Positions 9,356 to 63,502 of a stretch of 64,000 nt of DNA are shown piece after piece. Both the position numbers and the translations under genes were made by a program. Source of the stretch: a virus. Under the pieces are notes generated by a model that was not told where the DNA came from, did not search any database, and saw nothing but the letters and a program-made list of their open reading frames with translations. The stretch is from the UHGV virus genome UHGV-1430915, one strand, 5' to 3'. Numbering within the stretch: position 1 is the stretch's first letter; each line of letters begins with the position of its first letter.

Positions 9356-10210
9356 TTATGCCAGTGCAGCCTCAAAATCTTTCATCATATTTTGGAAAGT
9401 TTTTGCCTTACTTAAGGTAACACCGTGCTCTTTAGCGAAGGTTTGGAGTGCATCTTTCGAACCACTCTTGTCATCTTCGTTGTTAAGAGCTGCGGCTTGC
9501 TGCAGTATGGCATCAACATCGCCGTGAGAAGATCTTGATTCTTGTGCCTGTTCAGGATCCTGCTCAGTACCTTCCGTACCCTCCGGTGCGGTCGGACCTG
9601 GTGATTCCTCACTGCCACCACCAGGTTCAGTAGGGCCTACAGGTGGCTCCGGCTCTGGTTCAGGTTCTGGGGCTACTGTAGAAGTCAGCCCAAGATTTAC
9701 AACCTGAGAACGTTTCTTAGGCCACTCAATGGTGAAAGTCTGGGTATCTTCTGCATAAGCAACATCGCATTGCTCATCGTTTATGGTCACTTTTTTAGGC
9801 ATCCCTTCAGGGTCCCACAGATGGCCCTCTGCCACTGAAACTTTGAAAGCGGCATCTACCTCTTTAAACACTGACGGGGTGAGTGTGATATTGACATCAC
9901 CGCTTTGCAGTGTTAAAGTGCTTTCATCAAGGTTCTCTGTGAAGAACAGAAGAATAACACCCATACGGATAGTTGAAATACCAGTATCAATTGGCAGACC
10001 TGTGTGTTTTGCAATCTTCTCGAAGAAGTCTACAATCGTTCTGCATGGATAGTGAACACTGCCAATAACGAACTCTGTTGGTGGCAGCAGGGCTGATAAA
10101 CCAACATTGATTTCTGGATTGTATTGTGCTAAAAATTGATAAAAACTTAACTGATTGTTGAAAACTCTTAATAGAGGATCATACTCGACTGGATATACGG
10201 CTCTCTTCAC
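9356..10210 (-). CDS. hypothetical structural protein with PEPEPEPEP linker
   Basis: 284-aa ORF directly after major capsid gene; internal Pro/Glu-rich repeat linker. Confidence 0.4.
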   Translation of the reverse strand: MKRAVYPVEYDPLLRVFNNQLSFYQFLAQYNPEINVGLSALLPPTEFVIGSVHYPCRTIVDFFEKIAKHTGLPIDTGISTIRMGVILLFFTENLDESTLTLQSGDVNITLTPSVFKEVDAAFKVSVAEGHLWDPEGMPKKVTINDEQCDVAYAEDTQTFTIEWPKKRSQVVNLGLTSTVAPEPEPEPEPPVGPTEPGGGSEESPGPTAPEGTEGTEQDPEQAQESRSSHGDVDAILQQAAALNNEDDKSGSKDALQTFAKEHGVTLSKAKTFQNMMKDFEAALA

Positions 10211-17531: not shown

Positions 17532-17608
17532 TGGTCTCCACGGAGTGATTCGAACACTCGACCTCCTGATCCCAAATCAGGCGCTCTACCAAGCTGAGCT
17601 ACGCGGAG
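17532..17608 (-). tRNA. tRNA-Pro (anticodon TGG)
   Basis: Cloverleaf by hand: acceptor stem paired, D-arm GCTC/GAGC, anticodon loop TTTGGGA, T-loop GTTCGAATC, encoded CCA. Confidence 0.8.
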
Positions 17609-17619
17609 TATTTATTATT

Positions 17620-17694
17620 TGGTGGCCCTGGGTGGAATTGAACCACCGTCTGGCGATTATGAGTCGCTTGCTTGAACCTTCCAGCTACAGGGCC
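17620..17694 (-). tRNA. tRNA-Met (anticodon CAT)
   Basis: Acceptor GGCCCTG/CAGGGCC, anticodon loop CTCATAA, T-loop GGTTCAATTCC, CCA encoded. Confidence 0.8.
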
Positions 17695-17695
17695 A

Positions 17696-17771
17696 TGGTG
17701 CTGATGGCAGGACTTGAACCTGCAACCTATTGATTACAAATCAATTGCACTGCCAATTGTGCTACATCAGC
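17696..17771 (-). tRNA. tRNA-Thr (anticodon TGT)
   Basis: Acceptor GCTGATG/CATCAGC, anticodon loop TTTGTAA, T-loop GGTTCAAGTCC, CCA encoded. Confidence 0.8.
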
Positions 17772-17775
17772 AAAA

Positions 17776-17878
17776 GGTGCTAGGTGATGGAATCGAACCA
17801 CCTATGTATTCAACGACTACCTCGTCTATTTTCAGGATTAAAAATCCTCGCCCTTGCCAAAGGGCTTACCTAGCGCAA
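17776..17878 (-). ncRNA. tRNA-like element (perfect acceptor and T-arm; Lys-TTT-like anticodon loop; about 30 extra nt before T-arm; no encoded CCA)
   Basis: Acceptor GCTAGGT pairs with ACCTAGC, T-loop GGTTCGATTCC present, but region between anticodon and T arms far exceeds any normal variable arm. Confidence 0.4.
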
Positions 17879-17880
17879 TA

Positions 17881-17972
17881 TGTTGACCATGTGGCTAGTC
17901 GGCGATGACGACTGTAACATTTGATAATCCGGTTCTGCTTCCGGCTTTCGCTTAATTACAAGGTCAACAATG
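17881..17972 (-). ncRNA. candidate small structured RNA within tRNA cluster
   Basis: 8-bp closing stem TGTTGACC/GGTCAACA enclosing two hairpins (AGTCG..CGACT and CCGG..CCGG); lacks T-loop signature. Confidence 0.3.
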
Positions 17973-18063
17973 TGGCGGAGAGTAATGGAATCGAACCATC
18001 ATCGAGTCATCCTCAACGGGACGGTTTTCAAGACCGCTTGAGCACCATTGCTCCCTACCCTCC
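17973..18063 (-). tRNA. tRNA-Ser (anticodon TGA)
   Basis: Anticodon loop CTTGAAA, long variable arm, T-loop GGTTCGATTCC, acceptor GGAGGGT/ACTCTCC, CCA encoded. Confidence 0.8.
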
Positions 18064-18177
18064 TTTATAAATTACACTGATAATGACACTGATTTTCGAG
18101 CAGTTAGTGACTAGTATAAACGACGATAAATATCAATGTCATTATCTGTATGATTTATGCATTTAAAAATATAAATT

Positions 18178-18264
18178 TGGTGGGGAGTGGTGGAGTCGAA
18201 CCACCCGAGTCGCAATGACAATAGATTTACAGTCTACACCGCTACCTCTACGGGATAACTCCCC
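18178..18264 (-). tRNA. tRNA-Tyr (anticodon GTA)
   Basis: Anticodon loop CTGTAAA, long variable arm, acceptor GGGGAGT/ACTCCCC, CCA encoded. Confidence 0.8.
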
Positions 18265-18268
18265 AATT

Positions 18269-18343
18269 TGGCACCCCGTACTGGACTCGAACCAGTGTCA
18301 ACGGCTTAGAAGGCCGCTGCTTTATCCACTAAGCTAACAGGGC
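18269..18343 (-). tRNA. tRNA-Arg (anticodon TCT)
   Basis: Anticodon loop CTTCTAA, D-arm GCTT/AAGC, acceptor with G-U pairs, CCA encoded. Confidence 0.75.
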
Positions 18344-18401
18344 ACTGGGTGGCTTTCTTTTACACCTGAGCCGCCAGAAAAGGTGGGAGACCATGTTTAT
18401 A

Positions 18402-18430
18402 ATATTACACTGTTAGGCAAAGTTTGTCAA
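18402..18430 (-). promoter_or_regulatory. sigma70-like promoter for tRNA cluster (minus strand)
   Basis: TTGACA-N17-TAATAT on minus strand about 50 nt upstream of tRNA-Arg. Confidence 0.45.
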
Positions 18431-18439
18431 GAAAATATT

Positions 18440-18778
18440 TTAACTATTGCCAACAGGCTGTATTTCTGTGGTAAATGGCATAAAAGGTGCTGGTTTTTCA
18501 GCCTCTTCTACTACCACCTCTTCCTCTTCACCAAACATCTCATCATATTCTTCCTGCATTCGGTCTGCCTTATCAAGAACATACTCTGCAATGCTTTGAC
18601 GAATATTTTGTTTGGTTTTCGGGTCCAACATCAGCTCTCTTAAAACTTTGTGAGCTTCTGGAACCATCGCTATAAAAGATTCCTTCATATCAAGAATGTT
18701 CTTCTCTAGCTGAATGGCGTTGGACTCCTCTTTCAGAGGTCTGCCTCTACGGCGACGCTTTTTAGTTGTATCCGCCAT
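18440..18778 (-). CDS. small DNA-binding-like protein (basic AT-hook-like N-terminus KKRRRRGRP, acidic C-terminus)
   Basis: ORF from ATG at 18776-18778 with GGAGGAAAC RBS; own promoter and operator palindrome upstream. Confidence 0.5.
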   Translation of the reverse strand: MADTTKKRRRRGRPLKEESNAIQLEKNILDMKESFIAMVPEAHKVLRELMLDPKTKQNIRQSIAEYVLDKADRMQEEYDEMFGEEEEVVVEEAEKPAPFMPFTTEIQPVGNS

Positions 18779-18789
18779 GTTTCCTCCAT

Positions 18790-18801
18790 TATCACGTGAT
18801 A
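18790..18801. promoter_or_regulatory. operator-like perfect palindrome TATCACGTGATA
   Basis: 12-bp perfect palindrome between -10 and RBS of gene 18440-18778; second half-site TATCACGG at 18811-18818. Confidence 0.45.
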
Positions 18802-18806
18802 GGTGG

Positions 18807-18835
18807 ATTTTATCACGGCAAATACTGATTGTCAA
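18807..18835 (-). promoter_or_regulatory. sigma70-like promoter (minus strand) TTGACA-N17-TAAAAT
   Basis: Consensus -35 and near-consensus -10 with 17-nt spacer upstream of 18440-18778. Confidence 0.5.
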
Positions 18836-19030
18836 GTTCGCCGCAGGGTGGTATTCCCTGCGACTTGCCCAGCGTCCTGGACCAGCAAGACCCAACAAGT
18901 GGGTTACCAGATACCCATTACCGCGCTCTGGCTCGACCTTATTACAGGTTGGCTGGGGTCACATCGTCATGTGCTGGCTGCCCCTACCATTTTAAGTGTG
19001 GTGCACTATCAAGCCCTCTAAGGGGAACTC
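18836..19030. repeat. GC-rich noncoding element, copy A
   Basis: GC-rich island in AT-rich genome; shares colinear blocks with copy B (ttgtcaagtt, gcgctctggctcgacc, gtgtggtgcactat..gccc); contains 7-bp perfect stem CGCAGGG-tggtatt-CCCTGCG. Confidence 0.4.
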
Positions 19031-19123
19031 AGACTTCTCCGAACCCTGTTTCAAAGCATCCGGAGATAAAGCCATCAAACTCATCTTTAAATTGGATATT
19101 CATCATGATACACGAAAACAACC

Positions 19124-19366
19124 TCATTGTAAAGCACAAATAAATAAAACATACTTAATTTGTTTGTTATCGGGCTCAGGGTAGAAGTAGAAGATCTTGC
19201 TATCACCAATCTGAACACCACCATCCCAACAACATAAACCATAACCAGTATTCATACAAGCTAAGTCGTTGGCAAAATCTATTGCATCATCTAGTGCACG
19301 AAATTCACCTTCATCTTCTAAATAATCCTCATTCATGGAACGGAAAACGAGCTTAACCTTAAACAT
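19124..19366 (-). CDS. hypothetical protein
   Basis: 80-aa ORF. Confidence 0.35.
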   Translation of the reverse strand: MFKVKLVFRSMNEDYLEDEGEFRALDDAIDFANDLACMNTGYGLCCWDGGVQIGDSKIFYFYPEPDNKQIKYVLFICALQ

Positions 19367-19442
19367 AGCATTACCTGTAGACCTCGTAAGTTAAAATTGT
19401 ATCACATCATATTGCAGATCTTATCAGGTAACATTATTTTTG

Positions 19443-19631
19443 TCAACAGATTCCGGCCTTATCCTTCCTGTCTGCGTATTCTTTAATCGCAACCTCACCT
19501 GCATTGGTAACCAGATCTTCAAAGTAATTCTCAAGCTCCTCGTCAATGTCCGGTGACCAGCTCTTTTTCCTGTCAGTGTGAATTGCAGACTTGTTGAACT
19601 TATTACAATTCTTTGCTACCGGATTGTTCAT
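19443..19631 (-). CDS. hypothetical protein
   Basis: 62-aa ORF. Confidence 0.3.
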   Translation of the reverse strand: MNNPVAKNCNKFNKSAIHTDRKKSWSPDIDEELENYFEDLVTNAGEVAIKEYADRKDKAGIC

Positions 19632-19641
19632 TAAGCTCTCC

Positions 19642-20220
19642 TCAACGTTCGTAGTAAATCTTATTCAACATTACCTCATCGTTTGCAGAAAGGATATCAA
19701 GATATGCATCACCAAATCTGCCTGCAACAACCTCTGCATGATACATCACTTCGTTAACATCGTCAAGAGTGATAACAGGATGACCATATCTTTCTGAATA
19801 TTGTCTCAGTGTGCGATGCAACGAGTCGTCATCATATGCAGACTTTTTAATATCACAAACACGACGAATGGCCTTGATGTCGAAAAAACCTGTGCGATAC
19901 CACCCAAGAAAAAAGTTCCGTGTAGTGTCAACATCTACATCAATACCATTAAGAACCTTATCTACAAGATAGCTGTCATCCTTTGGACTAGCGTCCTTAG
20001 TGCGAATGTAGTTGCCATCTTTTCCAGGTGATAGCTCCTTCTCATCACCAACCTGCATGCCATCATTTGGCGGTGTTAGCCACTTATCAGGATGCTTACG
20101 ATCACGAGCGTTAGAATGATTACGCTGGAAACCTGGCTTCCACTTGAAAGTTTTCTCCATCTGTTCTTCATTCTGATAACGTTTTGCAATCTTTTCGCTG
20201 GCATCTTTGCGTGAACTCAT
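19642..20220 (-). CDS. hypothetical protein
   Basis: 192-aa ORF with AGGAGG RBS. Confidence 0.5.
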   Translation of the reverse strand: MSSRKDASEKIAKRYQNEEQMEKTFKWKPGFQRNHSNARDRKHPDKWLTPPNDGMQVGDEKELSPGKDGNYIRTKDASPKDDSYLVDKVLNGIDVDVDTTRNFFLGWYRTGFFDIKAIRRVCDIKKSAYDDDSLHRTLRQYSERYGHPVITLDDVNEVMYHAEVVAGRFGDAYLDILSANDEVMLNKIYYER

Positions 20221-20344
20221 AGCAGCCTCCTCTTCAAGTTATAGAAAAACTCACTGTATCGCTTTGTAACGAGCTTTTCTATCAAACTGGTGCGATTGCC
20301 TTACTTGGTATAGTTTATATAGCTGTGGAGCGATTTAGGGGCCT

Positions 20345-20590
20345 TCTTGTCAGTTTCCACACATAACTTTATCCGAACTCGCGCGGGAGGCTCTCAACCG
20401 ACTCCTTCCGGCGCTGGCAAGCTTTCGTCGGTGGTCCACATTAGTGCTCGGCCTTTGGCCTGCGCTATCGCTTCGCTCCCACACATGTTAACAGTCCTGC
20501 ATGTATGCACTTCTGTTATTGTGTGCACTATGGAGGCCCGGCATCTCGCCCCCCCGTAGGCGAGTGCCAATGAAGGGCCGACACTACCCA
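20345..20590. repeat. GC-rich noncoding element, copy B
   Basis: Diverged duplicate of element A in same orientation; ORFs through it look spurious. Confidence 0.4.
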
Positions 20591-20723
20591 TAATAAGTAA
20601 TAAATTTAAAACATGGTACTTAGGATCTAGTATATTCTACATAAGTTAAGTATATGTACTTTAGTACCATAAGTACTAGATCTTTTATTTTTATTATTTA
20701 GTTATTTTAGTTATATTCTTTAT

Positions 20724-20806
20724 GTGTCCGTATCACGGACAGTTAGTGTCCGTATTACGGGCAGATGTGTCCGCGTGACGGACAGTAGTGTCCGTATCAC
20801 GGACAG
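20724..20806. repeat. iteron/operator array: four tandem palindromic units GTGTCCGT-ATC-ACGGACAG (period 21-22 bp)
   Basis: Four copies starting at 20724, 20746, 20767, 20788; units 1 and 4 identical; each has 7-bp inverted arms; adjacent AT-rich block with nested inverted repeats at about 20600-20700. Confidence 0.6.
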
Positions 20807-20880
20807 TTACTAACCTCTGTTCCAGAGTGAACATAAAACATACAAATCCTTATAGTACAGATGTTTAAGTTTTTACTGGT

Positions 20881-21231
20881 CTAACCAGTTGTTGACATTC
20901 GAATAACTTCTTCTGGTGGCAAAACTTTGGAAAATGTGCATCTTTTACCTCTCCCTTGTGTGGATATTTCAACCACTCCTGCACATTCTAAAGTTTTAAC
21001 GCACGCTGCTGCTTTTGTTTTCTTTATCCCAACATCTGCTGCAATTTTCCTTGTGCTTGGTGTGAAGCGTGAATTTTCTCCAAGCTTATACCAGTTGTGC
21101 AGGTAGCAGTATACGATCTTGTCATATAAGTCAAGAACAACAACCTCCCCAGTTGTGTCATTCAAAACTTTTGACATAGACAGTATTTCAAGGGGGACTT
21201 TAAGATATAGCAGCTTATCCCCATCTTTCAT
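20881..21231 (-). CDS. putative HTH DNA-binding protein
   Basis: 116-aa ORF ending just before iteron array; helix-turn-helix-like segment TRKIAADVGIKKTKAAACVKTLECAG. Confidence 0.4.
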   Translation of the reverse strand: MKDGDKLLYLKVPLEILSMSKVLNDTTGEVVVLDLYDKIVYCYLHNWYKLGENSRFTPSTRKIAADVGIKKTKAAACVKTLECAGVVEISTQGRGKRCTFSKVLPPEEVIRMSTTG

Positions 21232-21278
21232 ATCTCCTGATTCTCCTTGTGTGGCAATTTTCTTTAAAATAGCAGGGA

Positions 21279-21833
21279 TTACTCCCCGCTGTCAATAGCA
21301 AGACTCATTGCAATACGGTATGCCTCTTCTAATGGTAAGAGTCTCCCCCACACATCCCAACCGACATCAAACTGCCTGCCAAACAACTGCTGTGTGGTTC
21401 CGTGAGCATGACCGAACAGTTGGACTGATCCGTGAGGCTTTCTGTTCCACTTTGCAAACTGGTAATGGCTCATACAGATCAAATTCTTGTTGTGGCGAAG
21501 CTCGTAATAATCTACAACCTCATGACCGAACTCTTTCATAATTCTGACAGTCGTCCTTGTGTCATGGTTACCACGAACAAGAATAATATGTCCGTTCAAC
21601 ATATTTAGAACATCTGGAAGCAATTTGTTGATATTCTTATCATTAGTGCACGCAATATCCCCCAAGTGAAACACAGTGTCTGCAGGTGACACAACAGAGT
21701 TCCACTTGGTGATGATTCCCGCATTCATACTGTCAAGATTGTGATCATACTGAGATCTGTGTTTTTGACATGAGTCGAACTCCATTACCCGCTGGTGGAG
21801 AAAGTGTGTGTCGCTTGTTACAAAGTATTTCAT
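21279..21833 (-). CDS. calcineurin-like metallophosphoesterase (putative RNA 3-prime phosphatase / phosphoesterase)
   Basis: Motifs SDTHF, GDIA, GNHD, GHAH typical of binuclear metallophosphatases; start set at MKYFVTSDTHF. Confidence 0.65.
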   Translation of the reverse strand: MKYFVTSDTHFLHQRVMEFDSCQKHRSQYDHNLDSMNAGIITKWNSVVSPADTVFHLGDIACTNDKNINKLLPDVLNMLNGHIILVRGNHDTRTTVRIMKEFGHEVVDYYELRHNKNLICMSHYQFAKWNRKPHGSVQLFGHAHGTTQQLFGRQFDVGWDVWGRLLPLEEAYRIAMSLAIDSGE

Positions 21834-21840
21834 ACATTCC

Positions 21841-22251
21841 TCATTTAAGTTTAATGCAGTTTTTAAGCTGGCGTTCCATACGATCCACAACCCTGTCTGG
21901 AACATCATGAATGCTTTTATTACCATGGCGGTTTTCAACCACGATCACGGTATAACTATATCCATGACTGATCGCCATGTCAATATATTCTTGCACATAT
22001 TTTTCTTTTGTAAACGTATTACTTACCACGATACGGTCGTAGCCCATACGCATCATATCTTCTACGTTATCTTTGCACCATTTTGCTGCAAGTGTTACTT
22101 TACTTGCATCCCAATTGTAATTGCCGTCATCGTCGTACCAGAACATATCGTTCTCAAAATGTGGATACAGACCTTCTAAAGATAGCGCATTTGCCAGTGT
22201 TGATTTGCCAGACCCTGGTAGACCACGCACGATATATAGCATTTTAGACAT
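21841..22251 (-). CDS. polynucleotide 5-prime kinase (Pnk-like P-loop kinase)
   Basis: Walker A GLPGSGKST; C-terminal region resembles T4 Pnkp kinase domain (HG..SIHDVP..V..RM); start at MSKML with RBS. Confidence 0.65.
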   Translation of the reverse strand: MSKMLYIVRGLPGSGKSTLANALSLEGLYPHFENDMFWYDDDGNYNWDASKVTLAAKWCKDNVEDMMRMGYDRIVVSNTFTKEKYVQEYIDMAISHGYSYTVIVVENRHGNKSIHDVPDRVVDRMERQLKNCIKLK

Positions 22252-22279
22252 AGTAACTCTCCGTTTTAATTTTAATGAT

Positions 22280-22308
22280 AGTATACCTAACTGTTTTGTT
22301 AATTTCAA
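22280..22308 (-). promoter_or_regulatory. sigma70-like promoter (minus strand) TTGAAA-N17-TATACT
   Basis: Upstream of kinase-phosphatase operon, back to back with plus-strand TTGACA at 22312-22317. Confidence 0.45.
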
Positions 22309-22351
22309 GTGTTGACACCAAGTTATTTGTGTGGCAGGATAAAGGGACAAA

Positions 22352-23287
22352 ATGACAAATGAGGAATGTATAATGAAGTATTTTAATGCAGACGACCTAG
22401 TTGACAAAGGTCTTGTAACCAGCAGATATTACCCGGATCTTGGGTTAAAGATCTATAAATATGCCAGAAAAGTATTCTACAACAATTTATGGCATTTGTC
22501 TCCTCGTTTGCTGGAGTGCCGAGGCATTGTTGTCGGTAATGAAGGAAATGTTGTGGCATGGCCCTTCACAAAAGTGTTTAACTTGGGAGAAAATTCCACC
22601 AACCTGCCTGACAATAAACTTGTGACGGCGGTAGAGAAAAAGAACGGATTCCTTGGTGTGGTATCATCTCATAAAGGTGAACTATTGTTCTCAACAACCG
22701 GGTCTCTTGATTCTCCATATTGTAACCTTGCAAAGGAAACAATCCAGGAGCAATGTGGTAATTTAGATCTTATCAAGAGGGTTATGGGCCATGAAAACAT
22801 GACATTCATGTTTGAAATTTGTCACCCTTCAGATCCGCATATTGTTCAGGAAGATCATGGCGCATATTTGATAGGTTGCAGATATAATGATTCTGGAATA
22901 ATGCTACCAGAAGCAGCTTTAGATGGGATTGCCAAATACCTTGGTGCAAAACGTCCTCACACTGTGCGTGAAATTCCGTTCAGCTATGCAAAAGAATTAG
23001 CTGCAGAAACAAGAGGTGAAGGGTATATGATTCGTAAGCCTTACTACCCTTATGATCTGCAGCTGAAGATCAAGTCTCCATACTATTTGGCACGGAAGGC
23101 CGTAATGAGGGGTAAAGCTTGGAAGATTTGGGATGATGATATCTTTAAACGTGTTGACGAAGAGTTTTATGGCATGGTAAACTTCATTCGTAGCAATTAC
23201 ACAGAAGATGTGTGGAACTGCCTCCTGGAGCAAGAACGTCGTGAGATACTTGACTGCTATTTCCACAACGAGGACTATATGCAATGA
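22352..23287 (+). CDS. RNA ligase, Rnl1 (T4 RnlA) family
   Basis: Blocks LECRGI, KVFNLGEN, KKNGFLG, STTGSL align with T4 Rnl1 LECRGI, KFFNLNEN, KEDGSL, KSKGSI; motif I has Asn in place of Asp. Confidence 0.65.
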   Translation: MTNEECIMKYFNADDLVDKGLVTSRYYPDLGLKIYKYARKVFYNNLWHLSPRLLECRGIVVGNEGNVVAWPFTKVFNLGENSTNLPDNKLVTAVEKKNGFLGVVSSHKGELLFSTTGSLDSPYCNLAKETIQEQCGNLDLIKRVMGHENMTFMFEICHPSDPHIVQEDHGAYLIGCRYNDSGIMLPEAALDGIAKYLGAKRPHTVREIPFSYAKELAAETRGEGYMIRKPYYPYDLQLKIKSPYYLARKAVMRGKAWKIWDDDIFKRVDEEFYGMVNFIRSNYTEDVWNCLLEQERREILDCYFHNEDYMQ

Positions 23288-23634
23288 AGAAGTTGATTGT
23301 GTGGCTGGATGACTTGAGAGATCCGTCAAATTATGGGCTCCCAGATGCTCTTTGGCTAAAGAATTCCTCTGAGTTTATGGATTTTATTAACGATAAGGGA
23401 AAGCTCTACAGGCGCGTTTCTGAGTGGCACATGGACAACGATCTTGGAGAGGTATTTGAAGGGTACGATTGCCTATCTATGTTGGAGGAAAAATTTGTAT
23501 TTGGTAAGCCTCCTGTAGTTGACAACGTGAAGATTTTCGTGCATACTTCTAACCCATCAGCGGCTCGTAAATTCATGATTGCTGCTGACTCGTTTAAAAA
23601 GTTTGGAATAGAGATTAAACAAAACATCTACTGA
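23284..23634 (+). CDS. hypothetical protein, translationally coupled to RNA ligase (possible receiver-like fold)
   Basis: ATGA overlap with RNA ligase stop; N-terminal LIVWLDD acidic pair; no confident family assignment. Confidence 0.5.
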   Translation: MKKLIVWLDDLRDPSNYGLPDALWLKNSSEFMDFINDKGKLYRRVSEWHMDNDLGEVFEGYDCLSMLEEKFVFGKPPVVDNVKIFVHTSNPSAARKFMIAADSFKKFGIEIKQNIY

Positions 23635-23642
23635 GGACACTT

Positions 23643-24404
23643 ATGCGACGACTGATCATTATCTCCGGTGCTGGTTTGAGCGCTGAATCTGGTATCCCCA
23701 CTTTCCGATCTGGTGGCACTGCAATGTGGGAGAATTTCAGCATCGATGAGGTGTGTAACATCCACACCTTTGCCAAGAACTACTATAAGGTGCATGACTT
23801 TTACAATGCACGGCGTGTAGCTCTGGGCAGTGTTGATCCTAACCTTGCACATCTCCGGATCGCTGAGTGGTATTCACGCTGGTCTGGTCGTGTGATCAAC
23901 CTGACAACCAATGTAGATGATTTGCTGGAGCGTGCTGGTGTAAAACATGAAGATATTTTACATGTCCACGGATATTTGCCAGAAATAGTCTACGAGGATG
24001 ATGAAGGGAGTAACGTCATTAAAGACATTGGATACTCTGAGGTAGACGCAAGCAAGTATACTTGGGTTAAGCCTAATGTAGTGTTTTTCGGAGAAGTAGC
24101 TCCAAAGTATACAGACATGTATGACCTGTTGACTTCTCTGACGAGCAATGATATGGTTATCCTTGTAGGGTGCTCCAACACAGTTATCAATTTTAACTGG
24201 GAGCTATTCCCTGCCTGTAATAAGGGAACCAAACTGCTGATCGTTAACAAATACGACTCACAGCATTTAGGGGAGAATGGCATTTCACGTAGTGACATTT
24301 ACCAGTATGAGGATCGCGGCATCCCAGTTTGGTTTAACGGGGCGGTTGACGCTTTCTCTGATAAAACATTTATTGACATCGTAGAAAACTTTATGGAACT
24401 GTAA
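23643..24404 (+). CDS. Sir2-family NAD-dependent protein (sirtuin-like)
   Basis: Canonical sirtuin motifs GAGLSAESGIPTFRS, TTNVDDLLE, catalytic-His block LHVHG, VKPNVVFFGE, ILVGCSNTV; no zinc-ribbon Cys pairs. Confidence 0.8.
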   Translation: MRRLIIISGAGLSAESGIPTFRSGGTAMWENFSIDEVCNIHTFAKNYYKVHDFYNARRVALGSVDPNLAHLRIAEWYSRWSGRVINLTTNVDDLLERAGVKHEDILHVHGYLPEIVYEDDEGSNVIKDIGYSEVDASKYTWVKPNVVFFGEVAPKYTDMYDLLTSLTSNDMVILVGCSNTVINFNWELFPACNKGTKLLIVNKYDSQHLGENGISRSDIYQYEDRGIPVWFNGAVDAFSDKTFIDIVENFMEL

Positions 24405-25761: not shown

Positions 25762-27044
25762 TGCATCAGATCAAAACAACACTGTACGCACTGAACAAAG
25801 ATGGCAGCTACCAACAGTGGAAAGTATTCACGGATGGTGATAAGGTTATCGTAGAGTTTGGCAAGCTTGATGGTAAACTGCAATACAAAGAGACGATCTG
25901 CACACCTAAGAACGTGGGTCGTGCCAATGAAACTACAGCTGAGCAACAGGCTGAGCTGGAAGCGATCAGTAAGTGGGAAAAACAAGTCCGTCTGGGGTAT
26001 GTTGAAAATATGGAAGATTGCGAGCAGGGTGTTGACCTTTTACCCATGTTGGTGCATGACTACCTGAAGCGTGGAAAGGCACTTAAATTACCTTGCTGGA
26101 TTTTGCGTAAGTTAGATGGCCTTCGTCTACTGGTTGTTTTCCAAAACGGTGAGCCTAAATTTATTTCCCGTGGTAATAAGTCCTACCCTATTCAAGGAAA
26201 GCTTCTGGAGCAACTTCGTTCTTTCCACTTCACCACCGGGATTAAACAGCTCGACGGAGAGATCTATATTCATGGTCTGCCTCTGCAGAAAATAGTGTCT
26301 CTTGCTAAACGTTGGCGCACACAGGAAGAGATTCAGGCCGAGATCGATAAAGACTACGAGGCAGATAAAAAACGCCGTCATGCCGCAATTAAGGCAGGCT
26401 TATCAACATACAAAAACTTCAATAAGGTAGATATTCCTGTTGATGTTGAGCCTGTTCGTGATGATTTGCGTTACGGAGGGTACTGTAGCTATGACTTAGA
26501 GTATCATATTTTCGACATCCCTAGTGACAAGGTATGGTGGGATCCAGAAACAGAATCTGGACGATGCAAGGATCTTATGGATGCAGAAGATACCATTACC
26601 ACCCTGATGCTTGACCATATCAAGGTTGTTGACGCAGAGCTTGCGTACACAGTTGATCATTGCGAAGAATCTGTTGGTGTATTCATGTCCGAAGGATATG
26701 AAGGTACTATCATGCGTAACTTCTGCGGTAAATATGAATATGGTCAGCGAACATCTGAAGCATTGAAATGGAAAAAGTTCAACGATGCTGAGGTGAAAGT
26801 TATTGACGTTGAGAAAGATAAGAATGATGAAGGTGTTCTTATCTGCGTTGACAAGGAAGGTATCGTTGTTAAAATGAAGATGAAAGGCACGCACGAGGAG
26901 CGTAGCTATGACAGGATGCAGGAAATGATCGGCAAGTTTGTCACCTTCAAATATCAAGCAAGGACAGAAGACAACAACTACCAATTCCCTGTCGGCATCT
27001 GCGTCCGAAATGTTAACCCTGACACTTGGGAGGTTCTGGAATGA
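25761..27044 (+). CDS. ATP-dependent DNA ligase
   Basis: Nucleotidyltransferase motif I KLDGLR, motif III-like EGYEGTIMRN, motif V LKWKKF; 427 aa. Confidence 0.7.
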   Translation: MHQIKTTLYALNKDGSYQQWKVFTDGDKVIVEFGKLDGKLQYKETICTPKNVGRANETTAEQQAELEAISKWEKQVRLGYVENMEDCEQGVDLLPMLVHDYLKRGKALKLPCWILRKLDGLRLLVVFQNGEPKFISRGNKSYPIQGKLLEQLRSFHFTTGIKQLDGEIYIHGLPLQKIVSLAKRWRTQEEIQAEIDKDYEADKKRRHAAIKAGLSTYKNFNKVDIPVDVEPVRDDLRYGGYCSYDLEYHIFDIPSDKVWWDPETESGRCKDLMDAEDTITTLMLDHIKVVDAELAYTVDHCEESVGVFMSEGYEGTIMRNFCGKYEYGQRTSEALKWKKFNDAEVKVIDVEKDKNDEGVLICVDKEGIVVKMKMKGTHEERSYDRMQEMIGKFVTFKYQARTEDNNYQFPVGICVRNVNPDTWEVLE

Positions 27045-63190: not shown

Positions 63191-63502
63191 TTATACGGTC
63201 CGATCATTGGCCTTTGTCCAGGACCTGGCGATCCGTTTCCCGGTCACCTGGAACGGAGGCTGCATTGTGTGTAATGAGTCCAGAGTAAGGGAGGACCGTT
63301 TACGGCGTATCTTCAGGATCGCTAACGTATTGTCCATCTCACGGCCAGGTCCTGGGCGGTATGGTGTGCCTCCAGCGTTAAGGTTGATGATCTCATGTAT
63401 TGAGATCCGGCGTTGTTTTGCTTCCGCATCTTTGAAGATAGCCAGCGGAGGCGCTATGCGTTGCCGATACCAATCTAAAACGGTTGGCGTAATAGCGATC
63501 AT
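63191..63502 (-). CDS. hypothetical protein
   Basis: 103-aa ORF, ATGA-coupled to upstream gene. Confidence 0.4.
   Translation of the reverse strand: MIAITPTVLDWYRQRIAPPLAIFKDAEAKQRRISIHEIINLNAGGTPYRPGPGREMDNTLAILKIRRKRSSLTLDSLHTMQPPFQVTGKRIARSWTKANDRTV

Follow-up and report, generated by a model that had tools for sequence, protein, structure and literature searches.

We analysed a 64,000-nucleotide (nt) stretch of the virus genome UHGV-1430915 (hereafter the window) and focused on two GC-rich noncoding regions that lie on the same strand, 1.3 kilobases (kb) apart: element A (18836-19028, minus strand) and element B (20345-20590, minus strand). By its sequence, the window is a Vequintavirus (rV5/FV3-like) genome, with region 18300-20900 being 96-99.5% identical to 118 Vequintavirus records, including rV5, FV3 and their relatives. 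Elements A and B are not homologous; they are two different elements. Element A, about 190 nt long, was delimited by its GC peak, its conservation and compensatory changes in its stems, and contains a 41-nt three-way junction (the core; 18913-18953, minus strand) that is common to T4 and several other groups of phages. Element B, which is likewise GC-rich, structured and noncoding but has no relationship to A, was delimited by its GC peak, its distribution and the lack of coding sequence, and recurs on small phage-like plasmids of Escherichia coli, next to a region with the layout of an iteron-type replication origin. The overall explanation that fits these observations best, to which we give about an even chance, is that A and B are distinct functional noncoding elements, both acting through folded nucleic acid.

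Elements A and B are not homologous

A preliminary description of this DNA had portrayed the two regions as GC-rich, devoid of credible open reading frames (ORFs) and located upstream of minus-strand genes, and had interpreted them as two diverged copies of one element, with about 60% colinear similarity. The first part of this description stands. The GC content reaches 0.53 in A and 0.565 in B when measured in 200-nt windows, and the corresponding peaks in 150-nt windows (0.60 and 0.587; mean of the window 0.43, standard deviation 0.045) are among the highest in the 64 kb. Element A precedes gene 18443-18781, element B precedes gene 19645-20220, and the 7-base-pair (bp) stem CGCAGGG/CCCTGCG reported in A is present at 18862-18842.

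The second part does not stand. Two copies of one element, whether they arose by duplication of an RNA gene or are what is left of a mobile element, would account for two GC-rich, noncoding regions in close proximity on one strand, and both regions do contain a hairpin followed by ..AUAGUGCAC(C)ACAC. Nevertheless, the pairwise alignment is no better than chance: the local score of 19 compares with 17.0 +/- 2.2 for dinucleotide shuffles (z = 0.9; equalled by 68 of 300 shuffles), and the global alignment has z = 1.06 against the same kind of shuffles. Among the blocks that had been listed as shared, 'ttgtcaagtt' in A reads, in reverse complement, as the -35 hexamer of a near-consensus promoter (TTGACA-17-TAAAAT, 18835-18807), and the 13-mer gtgtggtgcactat is not kept among the relatives of B, which have CUUUGGUGCAC and CAUAGACCGC instead. 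Furthermore, two covariance models of the A core, R1 and R2, find a single copy in the window, at 18909-18956, and none in element B (20345-20590), even with the search filters switched off. The sets of replicons differ as well, with A occurring in T4-like, KIL-like and other phages, and B in Vequintavirus and in 13.5-kb plasmids. We therefore consider a common ancestry of the two elements very improbable.

The absence of credible ORFs was borne out by indels among relatives and by the lack of any Pfam or PHROG match for the ORF translations of the A and B regions. Several GenBank records call ORFs of 30-57 codons in these regions, for example, rV5 ORF78 and bas59_0201/0202, in agreement with a coding function. 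Such calls are at odds with frame-breaking indels among close relatives, which differ by indels of 1, 3 and 18 nt (those of 1 nt indicating that A is not coding), and with starts and stops that are not conserved. In the longest ORF of B, all four substitutions between the window and the related locus L171 are non-synonymous and restore a hairpin. That the GC-rich stretches encode small proteins is thus scarcely credible, and small-ORF calls in these regions should cease.

The core of element A is a three-way junction

The A core is a real RNA structure. In the window copy, helix P1 is formed by GCCA and U(G)GGU, with four pairs and a bulged G, and encloses P2 (ACCU-GUAAUA-AGGU), the P2-P3 junction CGA, P3 (GC-CAGAGC-GC) and the P3-P1 junction GGUAA. 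The consensus comprises P2 of the form ACCU-GURNNA-AGGU, a C-R-A linker, a P3 hairpin starting with the pairs G-C and N-N, and the GGUAA linker leading back to P1. The covariance models match the window copy with 66.6-67.4 bits (E about 1e-18 to 1e-20).

The fold is carried by covariation. The three inner P1 pairs (5-43, 6-42 and 7-40) are canonical in 61 of 61 distinct sequences, with three to five pair types each, and the second P3 pair (26-33) is C-G in 46 of these sequences, U-A in 11, G-C in two and G.U in two, without a single mismatch; P2 shows two compensatory cases. A formal covariation count on 29 sequences gave 0.380, compared with 0.086 +/- 0.018 for shuffled alignments (none of 500 shuffles scored as high), and 89% of the cells were paired, compared with 25-46% in slid registers. 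The frequency of G.U pairs and the rarity of A.C pairs point to the tRNA-sense strand as the one that folds. The junction itself is invariant or nearly so in our alignments A2 and A6 (C22, the nearly invariant A24, G25, G35-G36-U37-A38-A39 and the bulged G41). Phages that carry tRNAs but are otherwise unrelated retain it with hardly a letter changed. The invariance of the core sequence is partly imposed by the search patterns; with a relaxed pattern, P3 varies freely and the junction does not.

Several earlier assignments were discarded along the way. The first model of P3 (pairs 22-35, 23-34, 25-32 and 26-31, as built into model R1) was contradicted by loci L171, L198, L176 and L189 and was replaced by 25-34, 26-33 and 27-32, and a first register of P1 with contiguous CCA/UGG gave way to the bulged-G41 register, the only one that fits L029, L032, L040 and L046. 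Reading the core as a peptide (..TCNKVEPKCGNG* or MRDSRQPVIRSS..) was rejected, given that the window lacks a start codon, the frames differ by lineage and the changes are non-synonymous. Resemblances seen by eye, to RNase P J11/12, 16S h44-h45, the tRNA T-arm, the tRNA-Tyr anticodon loop and the hammerhead, fail either against the covarying pairs or in the Rfam search. A second model match in the window, at 26587-26633 on the minus strand (20.6 bits), is antisense within an ORF of 427 amino acids (aa) and was treated as chance.

The Rfam search suggested for these regions yielded no Rfam 15 family for either element. Over the whole window only tRNAs were matched, and in region 18700-20900, searched up to E <= 10, the only match was a spurious rli43 (22.5 bits, compared with a gathering score of 100). 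No family was matched at the T-even core loci, and at 16 other core loci the only matches were tRNAs and, elsewhere in the loci, group I introns. Neither ARAGORN nor the Rfam tRNA model RF00005 identified a tRNA or tRNA-like gene in A or B; the seven tRNAs of this part of the window lie at 17532-18343. Literature searches on the sequence of the core motif, on an RNA from the denV-regB spacer of T4 and on the RNAs of Vequintavirus returned nothing relevant. The A core thus appears to represent a new family of orphan phage structured RNA, common to T4, with no Rfam family and not found in literature searches. Of the roles proposed in the preliminary description, that of a structured RNA is therefore well supported for A, by the covariation of three stems of the core across many phage lineages; for B, it is plausible, judging from compensatory changes between phage and plasmid copies.

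Distribution of the A core among phages

A sensitive BLAST search with the A spacer retrieved 119 full-length Vequintavirus matches and about 560 T4-like phages, in which the match is limited to 45 nt, with 91-95% identity, in unannotated DNA; overall, 682 phage records match A. In T4, the sole match is a core in the 144-bp unannotated spacer between denV and regB. A wider collection, assembled by pattern scans of viral contigs and by model searches on loci seeded by these patterns, extended the core to the sister genus of Vequintavirus, other Vequintavirinae, Pseudomonas phage KIL1, relatives of 46-kb Klebsiella siphophages, a 360-kb contig and several others. A scan of metagenomes for the core recovered about 20 true members among the 120 matches listed, mostly from lineages already known. 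In two loci, the core is present in two copies about 90-110 nt apart (L193, 830-877 and 916-962; L036, 5203-5250 and 5092-5137).

The preliminary description had also considered remnants of a host-derived element. The core has no match in E. coli genomes, and no true copy was found in 185,579 bacterial and archaeal species genomes, each represented by one genome: all 119 genome matches lacked the ACCUGU..AAGGUC context and are attributable to chance in GC-rich genomes, so a bacterial or host origin of the core was rejected. Element B, likewise, is missing from E. coli chromosomes and matches only small phage-like plasmids. A derivation of A or B from the host thus finds no backing.

In three viral contigs of 116-121 kb (L022, L009 and L018), the element is of the T-even type and is accompanied by the P-loop gene phrog_1488. 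This co-occurrence indicates that a module consisting of the RNA and the gene was exchanged between phage families. A general link between the core and phrog_1488 was rejected, however, given that the gene is present only in modules of the T-even type, and neither in the window nor at the loci of other lineages.

Architecture of element A

Element A lies between a small ORF ending at 19029 and the promoter of gene 18443-18781. It is 95-100% identical among 119 Vequintavirus records and 75-81% identical, with compensatory stem changes, in the sister genus, which is represented by loci L032, L216, L222 and L226 and has the same gene order. The comparison of its internal parts was made on an alignment of 12 sequences.

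From its 5' end, A begins with a hairpin, CCCC-UUAG-AGGG (19014-19025, minus strand), recognized from the sequence and almost invariant between the two genera. In the sister genus (L032 and L216), a dedicated promoter, TTGACA-17-TATACT, is located directly upstream of A, about 10 nt before this hairpin; RNA synthesis from it would begin some 10 nt ahead of the hairpin. The hairpin is followed by a 31-nt block, CUUGAUAGUGCACCACACUUAAAAUGGUAGG (18983-19013, minus strand), which is nearly invariant across both genera in the 12-sequence alignment, and by a stem GGGG/CCCC around the hairpin CACAU-GACG-AUGUG (18955-18984, minus strand). Both of the latter stems are replaced in a compensatory manner: the counterpart in the sister genus consists of GGAAC/GUUCC and CUACG-GACG-CGUAG, with the GACG loop retained, and that in T4 of GGGAA/UUCCC and CCUCAU..AUGAGG. 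Downstream of the core, the 3' domain (18864-18903, minus strand) contains the hairpin CCCA-CUUGU-UGGG and then CUUG/CAAG enclosing a GACG-loop hairpin, UCCAG-GACG-CUGGG. Within the genus, pairs in this domain change from U.G to U-A or C-G, from C-G to U-A and from C-G to U.G; in the sister genus, another stem takes its place, again with GACG in the loop, and the GACG-loop hairpin covaries both within and between genera.

The element ends with the 7-bp hairpin CGCAGGG-AAUACCA-CCCUGCG (18842-18862, minus strand), which is present in Vequintavirus only. We considered this hairpin as a potential intrinsic terminator and rejected it, because it lacks a U tract and is followed by GCGAACUUGAC; no terminator-like sites were found on the minus strand of region 18300-21300. 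Immediately beyond, and outside the RNA element, lies the sigma-70 promoter of gene 18443-18781 (18807-18835, minus strand; TTGACA-17-TAAAAT), with 11 of 12 consensus matches and an extended -10 TG. It coincides in position with the annotated promoter P74 of rV5 and contains the 'ttgtcaa' block discussed above. Regulatory DNA, another of the roles proposed initially, is accordingly represented only by this promoter at the 3' edge of A and, perhaps, by the origin context of B.

At its 5' side, A is bordered by a 36-codon ORF (19029-19139, minus strand) that overlaps the end of the 80-aa gene and stops exactly at the start of the element. Its ..KDEFDGF motif is kept in the sister genus, so that it may encode a real micro-protein.

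Genomic context and possible roles of element A

The core is associated with tRNA genes. All 119 tRNA genes found within about 2 kb of the core, at 34 loci, are on the core strand; in the window, a tRNA-Arg gene starts about 570 nt downstream of the 3' end of the core, on the same strand. The core and the nearest tRNA are 40 to 600 nt apart, depending on the locus, and the nearest tRNA may also end only 40-45 nt upstream of the core (L210 and L176). An intrinsic terminator follows 48-215 nt downstream of the core in about a third of the lineages outside the T-even type. Overall, the downstream partners of the core include tRNAs, terminators, a promoter, structural genes and the P-loop gene.

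In the scenario that we propose for A, the element would be transcribed on the strand of the genes and tRNAs as a structured RNA of about 190 nt heading the phage tRNA cluster, with the three helices P1, P2 and P3 of the 41-nt junction as its functional heart. The product might be a small stable RNA synthesized along with the phage tRNAs, either by processing of a longer transcript or, as in the sister genus, from a promoter of its own. A factor that these infections have in common, most likely an RNA-binding protein or enzyme of the host, could use the invariant junction as its docking surface; in this proposal, it is the docking of the common factor that would have frozen sequence and structure across phage families. 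Our best guess for the function of A is a small stable RNA with an invariant junction on which a conserved factor docks.

Several observations weigh against this assignment. The T-even copies have no tRNA nearby; instead, their core is located in the 5' leader of the P-loop gene phrog_1488, with which it travels, a position more in keeping with action in cis than with a free small RNA. A terminator is found in only about a third of the lineages. In addition, the folding energies are only mildly better than those of shuffled sequences (z of -1.3 for the sense strand of A, and of -1.5 and -2.8 for the sense and antisense strands of B).

Because the T-even copies sit in a gene leader, a cis-acting role is a serious rival, which we hold to be possible although rather unlikely. 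The core would then be an element of processing or stability, a determinant of RNA polymerase read-through for untranslated tRNA operons, or a ligand-sensing, riboswitch-like aptamer that controls the sequences downstream. Consistent with such a role, the core strictly shares the orientation of the tRNAs and lies within their operons; in the T-even and Av-05-like phages, it occupies the leader of phrog_1488, where the upstream genes vary and the downstream gene is constant, and a second conserved hairpin (GCCA-NGGAA-UGGC) adjoins the ribosome-binding site of that gene. A terminator lies within about 50 nt of the core in L210 and L033, as in the expression platforms of riboswitches, and invariant junction nucleotides are typical of ligand pockets. 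Conversely, the downstream partners are heterogeneous, the spacing to the nearest tRNA is far from fixed, in the window a strong promoter stands between the element and the following gene, and no conserved alternative pairing was found. Riboswitches are expected to be placed consistently in the leaders of functionally related genes, and among the core loci a constant downstream gene is seen only in the T-even subgroup.

The size of the core, its three-way junction with many invariant unpaired nucleotides and its association with tRNA arrays are also compatible with a small self-cleaving ribozyme that cuts the transcripts of phage tRNA operons. The fold of ribozymes like that of hepatitis delta virus (HDV), including the theta ribozymes, is a nested double pseudoknot in which a P1 strand of 6-7 nt lies between two hairpins and J4/2 carries a catalytic C. 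In the A core, only 3 nt (C-R-A) separate the hairpins, there is no HDV-type match in Rfam, and none of the Rfam ribozyme families is matched, even at E <= 10. By textbook descriptions, the junction strands (0 nt, CRA and GGUAA) are unlike both the hammerhead core and the HDV nested double pseudoknot, and the upstream tRNA lies at variable distances. A precedent is provided by the HDV-like theta ribozymes, which adjoin phage tRNAs (PMC10879173). They resemble the A core in being small conserved folds beside viral tRNA genes, and provide an example of processing modules in tRNA arrays; their double pseudoknot differs from the plain three-way junction with its 3-nt P2-P3 linker. We consider that a self-cleaving function for the core is improbable.

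Other non-tRNA RNAs associated with phage tRNA genes are known. To our knowledge, RNAC and RNAD of T4 are specific to T-even phages, unlike the A core, which is common to several phage families. These two small RNAs, described as 'RNAs of yet unknown functions' (PMC9697503), resemble A in being non-tRNA RNAs attached to a phage tRNA cluster, and are stable and made together with the tRNAs. They have no sequence relationship to A, whose T4 match is in the denV-regB spacer, not in the tRNA region. Element A belongs neither to RNAC/RNAD nor to the theta ribozymes. ROOL and GOLLD are orphan structured RNAs that are often phage-borne and often located near tRNA genes. They are 500-800 nt long, occur mainly in Firmicutes and other hosts, and are represented in Rfam, in contrast to the 41-nt core within an RNA of about 190 nt; no Rfam match to ROOL or GOLLD was obtained in the window. 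Both RNAs are discussed in PMC12286853.

If the small-RNA assignment is correct, a compact and nearly frozen fold without an Rfam family would be common to T4-like, rV5-like, KIL-like, Klebsiella sipho- and jumbo phages. It would offer a handle on the old question of what the non-tRNA RNAs attached to phage tRNA clusters do, with T4 as the most tractable phage system. The presence of the core in tRNA-carrying phages and its lack in bacterial genomes point to a takeover of host RNA metabolism or to evasion of tRNA-directed defence. In a broader and more tentative interpretation, to which we assign somewhat less than an even chance, the 41-nt junction would be a new, widespread class of functional phage RNA, either catalytic or ligand-binding or acting as a protein decoy, that was missed even in T4, has been exchanged among unrelated tRNA-carrying phages of Gammaproteobacteria, and acts on the host tRNA and RNA-processing machinery or on anti-phage defences that target tRNAs. 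Element B would then be a second new class, a portable origin-adjacent module of a 137-kb myophage and of 13.5-kb phage-like plasmids.

Element B is a modular element shared with phage-like plasmids

The distribution of B is far narrower. BLAST identified only 119 Vequintavirus records and partial matches on small E. coli phage-like plasmids; scans of viral contigs for relatives of B returned one contig only, and no match was found on E. coli chromosomes. The two plasmids, L354 (NZ_CP020521.1) and L355 (NZ_CP043822.1), have a unit of 13.2-13.7 kb (three copies of it, joined head to tail, make up a 39.6-kb record), contain iterons and encode capsid, tape-measure, baseplate and helix-turn-helix (HTH) Rep-like proteins. 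They look like very small phage-like episomes. The Rfam search of the plasmid B locus gave no credible match.

Two structural modules can be distinguished in B. The 5' module (20535-20579, minus strand) consists of the nested stems GGCCC/GGGCC, GGCA/UGCC and CUCGCC/GGCGAG, the latter two of which are changed in a compensatory manner in NZ_CP020521.1, to GUCA/UGAC and CUCUCC/GGAGAG, respectively. The 3' module (20381-20485, minus strand), conserved in both plasmid variants, has a closing helix GUGUGGGAG/CUCCCGCGC, seen in the minimum-free-energy fold, around the hairpin GUGGACCAC and the stem CCGAC/GUCGG. This stem encloses a 24-mer, GAAAGCUUGCCAGCGCCGGAAGGA (20426-20403), that is the same in phage and plasmid, and in the plasmid the stem ACCGAC/GUCGGU is replaced by GCUGCC/GGCAGC, with three compensatory pairs. 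In L171, the four non-synonymous substitutions mentioned above convert the hairpin GUGGACCAC into GCGGGCCGC. Altogether, compensatory changes are observed in four stems across phage, L171 and plasmids. B is modular, given that NZ_CP043822.1 lacks the 5' module and has the 3' module only. A boxA/boxC-like antitermination signal in B (CUGUUAACA-UGUGUGGG) was considered and rejected, because its boxA-like part is not conserved, with L171 and L231 having UUCAC.

In the phage, B is preceded by four iterons of 21-22 bp, located with a repeat finder, each with the palindrome TGTCCGTnnnACGGACA (20724-20809), and by an AT-rich stretch with inverted repeats (20600-20720); the GC content of 20600-20799 is 0.325. 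Further upstream, a 116-aa protein (20884-21231, minus strand) matches the PHROG 'replication initiation protein' (phrog_12838, 2.4e-79). The same protein scores 24.8 bits with PF13730 (HTH_36), just below the cut-off of 25, and 28.5 bits with DUF6945. The features of an iteron-type origin, namely, at least three phased direct repeats, an AT-rich region and a Rep-like gene, are all present, with four repeats at 21-22-bp spacing, and the iteron/AT-rich region beside B is a probable replication origin. The plasmids have an analogous layout, with seven 19-nt iterons and three AT-rich inverted repeats preceding their copy of B, although no protein homology was detected between the phage and plasmid flanks of B among the proteins tested, and the iterons differ too.

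In both phage and plasmids, B is a separate folded module just downstream of an iteron-containing, AT-rich, origin-like region, and might work with the replication origin, either as a structure of the priming or single-strand-initiation (ssi) type or as an origin-proximal RNA. Judging from this shared layout, B is probably linked to the origin. Iteron origins with structured priming sites provide a comparison: RSF1010 oriV with ssiA and ssiB, G4-type or primosome-assembly ssi signals and the ori-lambda layout resemble the context of B, where a GC-rich hairpin module comes after a Rep-like HTH gene, four helically phased dyad iterons and an AT-rich stretch. Signals of the ssi type are portable, with stems conserved rather than flanks, and the B module is similarly reused by a replicon with different iterons. 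By contrast with described ssi signals, B is longer, at 105-245 nt, and has an invariant internal segment of 24 nt.

Three considerations count against a connection between B and replication. The origin beside B is itself predicted from the iterons, the AT-richness and the name of a PHROG family; B points the same way as the genes downstream of it and might be no more than their leader; and the evidence on B fits RNA and single-stranded DNA alike. The second of these leads to an alternative in which B is a structured 5' leader or cis-regulatory RNA of the downstream operon (in the phage, the 192-aa gene and its followers; in the plasmid, the rep operon), with no direct role at the origin. B lies on the same strand as, and directly upstream of, the downstream genes in both replicons, and variants containing G.U pairs fit the sense strand. 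Moreover, the rV5 annotation has no promoter between ORF79 and ORF77, and therefore B would be co-transcribed with them. However, the downstream genes are unrelated in the two replicons, the plasmid has strong promoters between B and the genes, and the only context that phage and plasmid share is the iteron and AT-rich layout. Hence, we regard a leader without an origin function as doubtful, if conceivable. An origin-linked B would be a marker for the probable replication origin of Vequintavirus, phages that are candidates for therapy and biocontrol, and reveals a noncoding module common to a phage and very small phage-like plasmids.

Between B and the 192-aa gene, the 5' untranslated region of that gene (20221-20330, minus strand) is almost invariant in comparison with the 83%-diverged L171. 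Its conservation exceeds that of the coding sequence, and it may represent a further cis-regulatory RNA.

Gene order and other features of the window

All genes surrounding A and B are encoded by the minus strand. Along the transcript direction, the HTH gene of "replication initiation" type (21231-20884) is followed by the four iterons, the AT-rich stretch and element B, then by genes for 192-, 62- and 80-aa proteins, the 36-codon ORF and element A, and finally by the strong promoter, the 113-aa gene, another promoter and the seven tRNA genes (18343-17532). Beside the origin-like region, genes for a phosphoesterase, a polynucleotide-kinase-like nucleoside triphosphatase, an RNA ligase and a Sir2-family protein are clustered at 21279-24404, an arrangement that resembles an RNA (tRNA) repair module.

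Within the tRNA cluster, a 99-nt tRNA-like gene (17776-17874, minus strand) has an insertion of about 26 nt on the 3' side of the anticodon arm. ARAGORN assigned to it a 4-base anticodon and no amino-acid identity, and GenBank records list it as tRNA-Lys or 'OTHER'. Other GC peaks of 0.57-0.60 are located at 9465-9747, 2259-2456 and 63193-63398, the first of which is inside a 284-aa ORF and is probably coding. Finally, 18 GenBank records labelled 'Campylobacter phage' are 96-99% identical to the rV5-like coliphage region 18300-20900 and probably represent contaminant or mislabelled assemblies.

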